DNA of 64,000 nucleotides from Shigella phage sb3. The stretch is taken from sequence record PQ666541, one strand, 5' to 3'. The notes under the pieces were generated by a model. The model did no database searches. It saw only the letters and a list, made by a program, of their open reading frames with translations, and was not told the origin of the DNA. Made by a program: the position numbers and the translations under genes. Shown here in pieces: positions 30,503 to 32,023 of the stretch (within the stretch, counting starts at the first letter, position 1; each line of letters starts with the position of its first letter).

Positions 30503-30690
30503 TATTCTTCTACGTGCTGTTTACGACCTTTCTTATCAATAAAGGTATATTCAACGAATGTTCCAATATAATCTTTATCTACATCATGCGGACTATTAAT
30601 TGGGCATTTAGTACGGCAAATGCGTTCCCATTGACGAATAATTTCCACTTTGTTTTTAGGATCAAACGGATGCGGGTAATGTACTTTCAT
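30478..30690 (-). CDS. Hypothetical protein
   Basis: 70-aa ORF. Confidence 0.4.
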   Translation of the reverse strand: MKVHYPHPFDPKNKVEIIRQWERICRTKCPINSPHDVDKDYIGTFVEYTFIDKKGRKQHVEEYCLKVTWL

Positions 30691-31141
30691 AATCCACCAC
30701 TATTAAATCAATATCAGGAGTAAACATGTCGATTAATTTAGAAACCTTATCCCAATCACCGCCAGCAATACCACAACCTATGCGTGGAATGTAAATTACT
30801 GGTTTAAACAAAAGGGTTTCTGCCTGTTGATTTAATTCTATCATACAGTTTACTAAAGCACCATAATCAAGATTAGGACCCGGTTCGTATTGCGTATACA
30901 GGTTATAGCATATACCAAATCCCGTAGGATTATGTTTAAAAACAATAGACATATCGCCTAATTTATCACGAGAACCGTACTCAGTAGTGGTTTTATCTAT
31001 TTCTAAAATTTTAGGATAGGCCCTTGCTAATTGACCCGCTACACCTGAACCCATAGTATGAAAACAGTTGCACCCGTGCGCAATAATATTACCTTGAAGA
31101 AATAGGGCGACAATATCGCCCTTGATATATTTTACAATCAT
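30662..31141 (-). CDS. Macro-domain protein (ADP-ribose binding/processing fold)
   Basis: 159 aa; GDIVALF...NIIAHGCNCFHTMGSGVAGQLA and later IPRIGCGIAGG fit the macro-domain motifs. Confidence 0.5.
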   Translation of the reverse strand: MIVKYIKGDIVALFLQGNIIAHGCNCFHTMGSGVAGQLARAYPKILEIDKTTTEYGSRDKLGDMSIVFKHNPTGFGICYNLYTQYEPGPNLDYGALVNCMIELNQQAETLLFKPVIYIPRIGCGIAGGDWDKVSKLIDMFTPDIDLIVVDYESTLPASV

Positions 31142-31485
31142 CTAGTACTCAATCCTCGATTATAAGAATCTACTAAACGGTCAACCATTGAATGACAAGC
31201 GGCTTTATCTTTCTCCTCCGCAACTGAACATTCTAAAGTATTCCACTTTTTAGCATATCGTTTTAACAATGTATCATTTTTATATCTGCTTGATTTATCT
31301 CTTTCTCCATCTTTATATGCATATATTAATTTCTGCGCAAATTCAGCTTGGCATGCTTTATTTTTTCCGCAATAATCCGCGGCAGTACGGTTTACATACT
31401 CTCTAATTTCAGTATATGATGTATCTGCTGATGCAGAAGCAGAAAATGAAATTAATCCTATACATAAAACCAAAATTTTAGTCAT
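31138..31485 (-). CDS. Secreted Cys-containing protein
   Basis: 115 aa; N-terminal signal peptide MTKILVLCIGLISFSASASA then 4 Cys. Confidence 0.5.
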   Translation of the reverse strand: MTKILVLCIGLISFSASASADTSYTEIREYVNRTAADYCGKNKACQAEFAQKLIYAYKDGERDKSSRYKNDTLLKRYAKKWNTLECSVAEEKDKAACHSMVDRLVDSYNRGLSTR

Positions 31486-32023
31486 TTACTATTTCCAAAA
31501 GTTTATTATTTTTAAGGTAGTTAGCCTTTTCTAGGACTTCAGAAGCATATTTAGAACCTGCTTTAACATTCCATCCCGAATTATAAGAGGATATTGCTTT
31601 TCTTATATCGCCCTTATGTATATTTAACCAATAAGAAAGTTCAATGTACGCCCAGGAAGCTGAATTGGACCGTTTATTCAACATTCTTTTTATTTCAGCA
31701 TCGGTCATATTATAACCAAGTTCCTTGACTCTTGCTCGCATGGTCGGCAAATAATTTTGGAACATTCCGTAGGCATGATGCTTTGGTTTAGATTTTAAAT
31801 TAACTCCGGCAGAGCTTTCTTGCCATAAAATAGCAGCCATTATATGGCCTAATCCGCTCTTGTGGATATTTTTGTGTGTTTTATATTTTCCATCCTTAGA
31901 AAATTGTTCCCCGAATTGATATGCATAACGCATGTTATCGAGTTGGACATTACTGAAAGTATGCTCGGAGCTATGTGCCATCATTGAAATGGCCAATAGA
32001 CCAGCGAGTAGTGCTTTTCTCAT
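31478..32023 (-). CDS. Secreted lytic-transglycosylase-like protein
   Basis: 181 aa; signal peptide MRKALLAGLLAISMMAHS; AILWQESSAGVN...YGMFQ resembles the SLT catalytic motif. Confidence 0.5.
   Translation of the reverse strand: MRKALLAGLLAISMMAHSSEHTFSNVQLDNMRYAYQFGEQFSKDGKYKTHKNIHKSGLGHIMAAILWQESSAGVNLKSKPKHHAYGMFQNYLPTMRARVKELGYNMTDAEIKRMLNKRSNSASWAYIELSYWLNIHKGDIRKAISSYNSGWNVKAGSKYASEVLEKANYLKNNKLLEIVND

Follow-up and report, generated by a model that had tools for sequence, protein, structure and literature searches.

In bacteriophage T4, the genes between tk and regB include tk.4, vs and vs.1. Similarity of vs.1 to soluble lytic transglycosylases (SLT) and of tk.4 to the A1pp (macro) domain was already described by Nolan et al. 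(2006; PMC1524935), vs is the textbook 'valyl-tRNA synthetase modifier', and the biological role of the modification of valyl-tRNA synthetase (ValRS) by Vs is stated as unknown in the literature. Here, we describe the same genes in Shigella phage sb3, using a stretch of 64,000 nucleotides (nt) of sequence record PQ666541 (hereafter the window, position 1 being its first letter), which is that of a Tequatrovirus with a G+C content of about 35% and dense minus-strand genes. Gene names (tk, tk.4, vs, vs.1) were assigned by comparison with the annotated T4 genome. An earlier note, made from the sequence alone, had proposed a comparison with T4 between tk and regB, and this yielded exact counterparts of three open reading frames (ORFs): tk.4 (30662–31141; a macrodomain protein of 159 amino acids, aa), vs (31138–31485; a 115-aa precursor) and vs.1 (31478–32023; a 181-aa precursor). 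These and, unless stated otherwise, all features given below are on the minus strand. The note had placed all three genes correctly but took the macrodomain gene as the first, whereas it is the last in transcription; nor had it recognised the middle gene as vs, whose annotation makes the presence of a signal peptide notable. The role of the macrodomain is now essentially explained and the SLT similarity has long been known; the new point, among results that are mostly known, is an invariant, co-translated and apparently exported vs.1–vs pair with a common mutant phenotype.

The closest described relatives of Vs.1 are the lytic transglycosylases Slt70, MltD and LtgA, with which it has in common the E-S, G-x-(M/F)-Q and Y-N-x-G motifs, the fold of GH23 enzymes and a signal peptide predicted to direct it to the periplasm. 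It differs from them in being an early-expressed phage protein that is not known in the virion or in a holin–endolysin lysis cassette. Its small single-domain size resembles that of the specialised signal-peptide lytic transglycosylases of secretion systems. Vs.1 of the window is 99% identical to T4 Vs.1. The SLT-like character proposed in the earlier note is borne out by a match to the Pfam SLT profile (PF01464; E = 4.8e-5, 23.4 bits with a cut-off of 21.3), which is marginal alone and consistent across orthologues. In an alignment of 27 homologues reaching down to 41% identity, E69 (31817–31819), G86, F88 and Q89 (31757–31768), and Y147, N148 and G150 (31574–31585) are invariant, and S70 is nearly so (at least 90%). 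These positions correspond to the E-S, G-x-F-Q and Y-N-x-G signatures by which lytic transglycosylases of family 1 are known.

The AlphaFold model of Vs.1 has a predicted local distance difference test score (pLDDT) of 88.4 overall, about 55 in the signal peptide and above 90 in the domain. Foldseek matched this model with a probability of about 1.0 to MltD, a GH23 chitinase, LtgA, Slt70, the phi6 lysin and the transglycosylase domain of T7 gp16; a sequence search of the Protein Data Bank (PDB) with Vs.1 returned nothing meaningful. The Foldseek E-values were weak (about 1e-2), with template modelling (TM) scores of 0.44–0.54, and this speaks against the assignment. A Sec signal peptide is predicted at residues 1–18 (MRKALLAGLLAISMMAHS, followed by S; 31970–32023), by a heuristic and in 27 of the 27 homologues. 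Proteins resembling Vs.1 are encoded in 2084 phage records, among them Felixounavirus and Ackermannviridae, and signal peptides were present in those that were checked. Judged by motifs and model, Vs.1 is very probably an exported (periplasmic) GH23/SLT lytic transglycosylase, which would cleave the glycan strands of peptidoglycan via Glu69.

Cleavable signal peptides had been noticed earlier on the two genes next to tk.4, and they are borne out here. The heuristic used calls for a basic n-region, followed by a hydrophobic core and by small residues at −3/−1, in an N-terminus free of acidic residues. The window has 166 ORFs with 60 aa or more, and four of them pass: Vs and Vs.1, RI (known to be exported) and a membrane-like ORF. 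The hydrophobic cores of Vs and Vs.1 have mean Kyte–Doolittle values of 3.0 and 2.4, and cleavage is predicted after residue 20 in Vs (ASA, before D) and after residue 18 in Vs.1 (AHS, before S). Signal-peptide character is kept amid sequence drift in all 13 Vs homologues, all 27 Vs.1 homologues and at 50 of 50 related loci. The membrane-like ORF (21801–22202, 133 aa) begins with a strongly hydrophobic, Cys-rich N-terminus (MKQLIIKRLNLLICCLCVVVAYGYY…) and, by its sequence, probably encodes a membrane-anchored protein.

Vs of the window is 100% identical to T4 Vs and belongs by sequence to the ValRS_modifier family (PHROG 1256, E = 1.7e-39; Pfam PF26829, ValRS_modifier, precomputed on homologues). 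Its predicted Sec signal peptide comprises residues 1–20 (MTKILVLCIGLISFSASASA, followed by D; 31426–31485), with a pLDDT below 50. Across 13 homologues, the first 20–24 residues vary, yet they always include K or R at positions 2–3, a hydrophobic core and an A-x-A-type site, and they lack acidic residues. The mature part, in turn, has four invariant cysteines, C39 (31369–31371), C45 (31351–31353), C86 (31228–31230) and C97 (31195–31197), and an invariant C-terminal SMVDRLVDSYNRGL. In the AlphaFold model residues 1–20 are unstructured and are followed by a confident four-helix bundle, with the cysteines at the turns between helices 1 and 2 and between helices 3 and 4. The predicted mature form has 95 aa, a mass of 11.0 kDa and a pI of 8.9, the precursor a mass of 13.1 kDa. 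No in-frame internal start that would give a leaderless Vs was found between codons 6 and 99. These features suggest that Vs is probably exported, with somewhat less confidence than we attach to Vs.1, and probably stapled by two disulfides.

One group of Vs proteins carries another kind of export signal. In Vs of the loci L037, L038, L040, L041, L054 and L006, a lipobox (LSGC, then K) stands in place of the signal peptidase I site, and this clade includes Cronobacter phage Pet-CM3-4-like genomes. LSGC followed by K is present in a diverged member, P0096, from a T4-like metagenomic contig on which the slot reads regB, a 182-aa protein, Vs, further genes and tk. The lipobox clade is predicted to have an outer-membrane lipoprotein form of Vs. 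When 1.84 billion representative proteins were searched with a Vs profile, only eight family members were found, and therefore there are no distant cellular relatives from which a function could be borrowed. A PDB sequence search with Vs also gave nothing meaningful. Full-length, N-terminally His-tagged Vs has been reported to form inclusion bodies in the Escherichia coli cytoplasm (PMC8076793).

The pairing of vs.1 with vs was surveyed at 50 loci on viral contigs that encode a Vs.1 orthologue, with identities from 100% down to 43%. At every one of them, the start of an ORF of the Vs type lies between −7 and +8 nt relative to the vs.1 stop codon; the overlap in the window is 8 nt. These ORFs are mostly about 100–120 aa long, and each has a signal peptide (or, at five loci, a lipobox) together with the pattern C-x5/6-C … C-x8/10-C. 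The Vs profile matched 48 of the 50 at E of at most 1e-3, and the remaining two can be recognised as Vs-like by eye. The order vs.1–vs–tk.4 is annotated also in Dhakavirus JS98 and a Klebsiella T4-like phage. Two of the Vs ORFs are truncated, at L020 and L040 (85 and 65 aa), the loci being otherwise intact; frameshifts, pseudogene formation or mistakes in assembly may account for this. The next gene, tk.4, is less constant. It follows vs directly at about 30 of the 50 loci, is separated from it by an ORF of 130–146 aa at about 15, and is absent within 1.5 kb at about 10. This uncharacterised ORF, lying between vs and tk.4 or replacing tk.4, occurs at about 15–20 T4-like loci (L015–L019, L034–L035, L037–L041, L043 and L052–L056, at about +315 nt past the vs.1 stop; 139 aa in L006), and it did not match the family profiles for Vs, Vs.1 or Tk.4.

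Published transposon-sequencing (Tn-seq) data for T4 bear on the same pair. In the HIDEN-SEQ preprint, tk.4, vs and vs.1 were all non-essential on solid LB. The mean counts in its supplementary tables, from liquid competition in LB vs M9 medium, fell from 26.6 to 5.0 for vs (log2 fold change −2.19, adjusted p about 0) and from 22.6 to 11.9 for vs.1 (−0.87, p = 0.0055). Depletion was not seen for regB (178.6 and 403; +1.17, p = 0.049), tk.4 (289.6 and 275; −0.07), tk.3 (767 in LB) or vs.3 (652 in LB). Already in liquid LB, the counts for vs and vs.1 (26.6 and 22.6) were about 10-fold below those of their neighbours (128–767), and these two genes were alone in this. In the clinical strain CFE299, vs.1 was again depleted (−1.20, adjusted p = 0.015) with vs in step (−1.04), and tk.4 was unchanged (HIDEN-SEQ preprint). 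A fitness defect is thus common to the vs and vs.1 mutants and is not seen in those of regB and tk.4. Simple polarity is disfavoured because insertions in the upstream regB were not depleted. The enrichment of regB insertions in M9 is itself worth recording, as vs.1 and vs downstream are depleted there; loss of RegB may raise downstream gene expression.

From the sequence features, the survey and these data, we infer a translationally coupled and Sec-exported pair, for which export, enzyme activity and any physical partnership are predictions. If located in the envelope, Vs would most likely serve Vs.1 as a regulator, inhibitor or adaptor. Proteins with such a role are known: T4 Spackle is an inhibitor of the gp5 lysozyme, and Ivy, PliC/MliC and PliG are bacterial periplasmic or lipoprotein lysozyme inhibitors. 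Vs resembles them in general terms, being small and apparently exported, with conserved cysteines, soluble and lipoprotein variants and a link to a muramidase-type enzyme. It differs in that no sequence or fold similarity to any of them was detected, and its role as inhibitor or regulator is hypothetical.

A rival reading keeps Vs in the cytoplasm. Neidhardt, Marchin and colleagues reportedly described the vs product as a factor of about 10 kDa (the size is also said to have been given by Müller and Marchin in 1977) that binds the cytoplasmic ValRS, and the factor is said to stabilise a temperature-sensitive ValRS in vivo, which speaks for cytoplasmic action. Vs would then be a cytoplasmic ValRS-binding protein as annotated, its N-terminus would not be a functional export signal or would permit partial export, and its adjacency to vs.1 would be an inherited order. 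Such a role would agree with the full identity to T4 Vs, with the family name in Pfam PF26829 and PHROG 1256, with the classical biochemistry and genetics, and with the minimal-medium specificity of the plaque defect of a vs deletion, which its authors linked to translation and nutrient supply. The gene order of T4-like phages is, besides, conserved in general. However, the vs.1 mutant shows the same phenotype, and the reported size of about 10 kDa is closer to the cleaved form than to the precursor. A cytoplasmic role also has to account for a signal-peptide character that is kept in every homologue despite drift, for four invariant cysteines and for a leaderless isoform that could not arise from an in-frame start. 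The switch of one clade to a lipoprotein signal is particularly hard to reconcile with it. The 1986 sequence record (X04567) lists vs only as 'ORF 60.9', and evidence tying the genetic vs locus to this ORF was not found. No comment on a signal peptide of Vs was found in the literature searched. The sequence features of Vs (signal peptide, lipobox clade, four cysteines) thus argue for an extracytoplasmic site and against the textbook label, and we regard a cytoplasmic Vs as unlikely, though it deserves to be taken seriously.

A more far-reaching possibility, to which we give somewhat less than even odds, is that the protein named a ValRS modifier for about fifty years is an exported, disulfide-stapled periplasmic protein (an outer-membrane lipoprotein in one clade) and forms an obligate module with Vs.1, which it would inhibit, regulate or target. 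The ValRS effect would then be secondary, or due to a minor cytoplasmic pool, or the genetic vs locus would have been assigned to the wrong ORF. The narrower proposition that Vs acts together with Vs.1 in some way is slightly easier to accept, but still falls a little short of an even balance. Several points weigh against the module. One of them is the classical ValRS work. The four cysteines could alternatively form a zinc site. The constant adjacency of vs.1 and vs is confounded by common ancestry and by the generally conserved synteny of T4-like phages, and their common defect could come in part from vs.1 insertions that reduce the coupled translation of vs. The lack of similarity of Vs to the known lysozyme or transglycosylase inhibitors (Ivy, PliC/MliC, PliG, T4 Spackle) counts in the same direction, as does the absence of a Vs-like neighbour beside the more distant SLT homologues of Felixounavirus, Ackermannviridae and Chrysonvirus, which confines the pair to T4-like phages. 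If the module is real, its task in early infection would be the remodelling or protection of peptidoglycan, of most consequence in slow-growing, nutrient-limited hosts. Superinfection exclusion or envelope remodelling, for which the earlier note had seen candidates in these proteins, is speculative. The pair makes the question of the role of Vs, open since the 1970s, directly testable, and Vs.1 has never been characterised. Moreover, the name ValRS_modifier may be misleading hundreds of phage annotations as to where the protein is located or what it does.

The earlier note had treated the macrodomain gene and the two signal-peptide genes as one feature. The three genes are indeed adjacent, co-transcribed and joined by overlapping start and stop codons in both the window and T4, and they could in principle form one unit, an ADP-ribose-linked envelope system. 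We reject this as most improbable. Tk.4 lacks a signal peptide and is an acidic, cytoplasmic-type sequence (pI 5.0). The intervening ORFs and missing tk.4 genes at the surveyed loci contrast with vs.1 and vs, which are never apart, and the Tn-seq phenotypes differ. The families are also distributed independently, with Vs found in 795 phage records, Vs.1-like proteins in the 2084 mentioned above and Tk.4 relatives in 2783. The three genes thus resolve into an invariant vs.1–vs pair and a variable neighbour.

Several described systems bear on that neighbour. T-even phages without AdfA and AdfN are still resistant to the toxin–antitoxin defence DarTG2, which implied an unknown factor (PMC11257639). 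A 2025 preprint reported T4 tk.4 as the single significant transposon-sequencing match against DarTG2; a clean tk.4 knockout was sensitised to DarTG2, and the gene was named adfM (bioRxiv 10.1101/2025.11.20.689424). PhiKZ gp104, independently named AdfM, strips DarT2 adducts from DNA in vitro (PMC13309987). Among cellular macrodomains, SCO6735 (54% identity to BT1257) splits thymidine-linked ADP-ribose off DNA and confers protection from DarT; it has an essential glutamine, Gln85, at the lysine position, and also requires His24, Asn27 and Gly128 (PMC9411070).

Tk.4 of the window belongs with these macrodomains. The macrodomain that the earlier note read in 30662–31141 matched Pfam Macro (PF01661) with E = 1.5e-8 and 35 bits (cut-off 22) over profile positions 2–117 of 118, and sequence searches matched the solved macrodomains BT1257, Poa1p, SCO6735, Mycobacterium tuberculosis DarG and TARG1; the N-terminal half resembles yeast Poa1p (E = 1.5e-9). 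A profile of the family, built from 20 sequences with identities as low as 40% (alignment A4) and searched against solved structures, gave BT1257 (E = 1.2e-17), TARG1 (1.3e-16), Poa1p (2.6e-14), SCO6735 (3.5e-14), and the DarG proteins of M. tuberculosis (7.9e-11) and Thermus aquaticus (4.7e-9). DarG was the sole match for Tk.4 in PADLOC (E = 1.3e-7), and the best NCBIfam match was the macrodomain part of the DarG antitoxin (NF048014, E = 3.4e-7). The full DarG model was far from reached, at 29.8 bits for a cut-off of 250 and with profile positions 2–142 of 338 covered.

The active site places Tk.4 more precisely. Invariant in the 20 homologues are G8, H22 (31076–31078), G23, N25 (31067–31069), C26, G31, G33, A35, T83 and Q84 (30890–30895), P119, G122, G124 and W130; G122, G124, G127 and G128 (30758–30778) lie in the phosphate loop PRIGCG-x-AGG. 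In the alignments, Q84 falls on the catalytic Lys84 of TARG1 as well as on the glutamine of the BT1257 'IGQ' motif, and Ala126 falls on Asp125 of TARG1 (GCGIA vs GCGLD), so that the Lys84–Asp125 dyad of TARG1/OARD1 is absent. Tk.4 is a macrodomain of the ALC1-like class by its residues, with an active site of the SCO6735 type (Gln) and not of the DarG/TARG1 type (Lys), because the glutamine at the lysine position, the His and Asn and the Gly-rich loop match the residues described for SCO6735 (PMC9411070). SCO6735 and BT1257 (PDB 5E3B and 2FG1) accordingly share with Tk.4 the Gln catalytic position, His-x-x-Asn and the PRIGCG-L/I-AGG loop. They differ in being cellular proteins and in having a mobile loop that is longer by about 5–6 residues. 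The suggestion of the earlier note that the domain binds or hydrolyses ADP-ribose derivatives is well matched by this class and these residues, which point to a likely ADP-ribose adduct hydrolase.

The DarG macrodomain (PDB 5M3I and 5M31) and PhiKZ AdfM have a homologous fold and the same predicted task, removal of DarT2 adducts, but both use a catalytic lysine ('PTK') where Tk.4 has 'YTQ'. DarG additionally has a C-terminal DarT-binding domain and a neighbouring darT; no darT lies beside tk.4, its neighbours being vs and tk.3. The Tk.4 family and PhiKZ gp104 are homologous (hhalign probability 96.5%). The hhalign register was set aside as a guide to residue equivalence with PhiKZ AdfM, as it appeared shifted by two positions near the catalytic residue. 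Catalysis thus depends on a glutamine in the 'AdfM' of T4-like phages and on the DarG-type lysine in that of PhiKZ, so that one name covers two active-site chemistries.

The window gene lies in the same slot as T4 tk.4, between vs and tk.3, and its product aligns with T4 Tk.4 over the full length (BLASTP E = 3e-71), which identifies it as the T4 AdfM orthologue. It is, however, only 58% identical, while Vs is 100% and Vs.1 99% identical to T4. The divergence is confined to a core (30680–31020) in which DNA identity to T4 drops to about 45–70% per 60-nt block in a MAFFT profile, within flanks that are about 97% identical (about 95–100% per block). The window-type allele is found in about 270 phage records at 95% identity or more; T4, T2 and many others carry the other type. 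The two proteins agree in locus, length class and operon, and both have H22, N25, T83-Q84 and the PRIG-x-G loop; all catalytic residues are kept in the window allele. They differ in the replaced core and in the sequence GCGIAGG, which is GAGIGKG in T4. The window allele is inferred to share the activity of T4 AdfM. Tequatroviruses thus have at least two deeply diverged adfM alleles swapped into near-identical genomes, a pattern expected of a counter-defence gene under varied DarT2 toxins, and the alleles are natural variants for tests of specificity.

Taken as a whole, Tk.4 is highly probably a DNA ADP-ribosyl glycohydrolase that counters DarT2. In the cytoplasm, it would remove the ADP-ribose placed by host DarT2 on thymidines of single-stranded phage DNA, and phage replication could go on in DarTG2-carrying cells. 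Some points tell against this. The window protein is only 58% identical to the one assayed in T4, and the T4 evidence is a preprint. The longer mobile loop of the SCO6735 subclass is not found in the Tk.4 family (in the profile alignment BT1257 has six more residues, and Tk.4 has the length of TARG1), and Tk.4 has neither the DarG lysine nor the C-terminal DarT-binding domain. The earlier note had thought instead of the ADP-ribosyltransferases of T4-type phages and of ADP-ribose-based immune signalling. Alternative substrates, namely protein ADP-ribosylation or RNAylation by Alt, ModA or ModB, ADP-ribose 1''-phosphate (Appr-1''-p) or immune signals, would fit the likeness of the N-terminal half to Poa1p, an ADP-ribose 1''-phosphate phosphatase, and the label 'phosphatase' or A1pp given to the gene in records; SCO6735 and TARG1, moreover, also remove protein-linked ADP-ribose (PMC9411070). 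They fare poorly against the knockout data, as T4 tk.4 is needed only with DarTG2 present and is otherwise non-essential, and the nearest defence-related profile is DarG. Cleavage of thymidine-linked adducts has also been demonstrated for the Gln type of active site. It is very unlikely that Tk.4 is explained by a substrate other than DarT2-modified DNA, and the best-supported substrate is the thymidine-linked ADP-ribose made by DarT2 on DNA, as indicated by the T4 adfM knockout. Such activities are nevertheless compatible with a main role against DarT2 and not mutually exclusive with it, and the Appr-1''-p 'phosphatase' label is considered a legacy one, outdated rather than disproved.

The locus is likely the middle of a T4-type early operon that holds two unrelated functions. 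The 2.6-kb region around it is 96–97% identical to many Tequatrovirus genomes and matches 749 phage records. Transcription runs from regB through vs.1, vs and tk.4 to tk.3 and onward. The first gene, regB (32031–32492; endoribonuclease, Pfam REGB_T4, E = 1.4e-68), ends 7 nt before vs.1, and the vs stop overlaps the tk.4 start in ATGA. Upstream of regB, a scan found a T4-type early promoter (32520–32548; TTTACT, 17 nt, TG-TATAAT; 10 of 12 positions matched, extended −10), and a promoter is annotated at the equivalent site in the T4 record X04567. By its position, this promoter is predicted to drive regB, vs.1, vs and tk.4 together with the genes from tk.3 to tk (29152–29733).

Several smaller features of the region can be added. 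The 3' end of tk.4 overlaps tk.3 (DUF7202, 70 aa) by 29 nt (30662–30690), compared with 4 nt in T4, because the window allele of Tk.4 is four residues longer and has a different end. Within the 5' end of tk.4 (codons 7–13), a perfect, G+C-rich 8-bp hairpin, AGGGCGAT ATT GTCGCCCT (31104–31122), is flagged as terminator-like on both strands, and it might influence tk.4 translation or messenger RNA processing. Between tk.2 and tk.3, about 375 bp are inserted relative to T4 (30102–30502). The insertion holds two small overlapping ORFs, one of 58 aa (phrog_3452, unknown function) and one of 75 aa (Pfam PF23895, Phage_zn_bind, E = 4.3e-29); neither is in T4, and related ORFs occur at this place in JS98 and others. 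On the other side of regB, the vs.4 orthologue (32830–33096, 88 aa) matches Pfam Acb2_Tad1_hairpin (E = 7.1e-20), a family of anti-CBASS/anti-Thoeris sponges, and is also present in locus L006. With vs.4 and tk.4, the same early region thus holds a pair of counter-defence genes no more than 2.5 kb apart. Further upstream, vs.6 (33310–33672, 120 aa) encodes a glycyl-radical domain that stands alone and resembles GrcA (Pfam Gly_radical, E = 2.2e-18), and is labelled autonomous glycyl radical cofactor in related phages.

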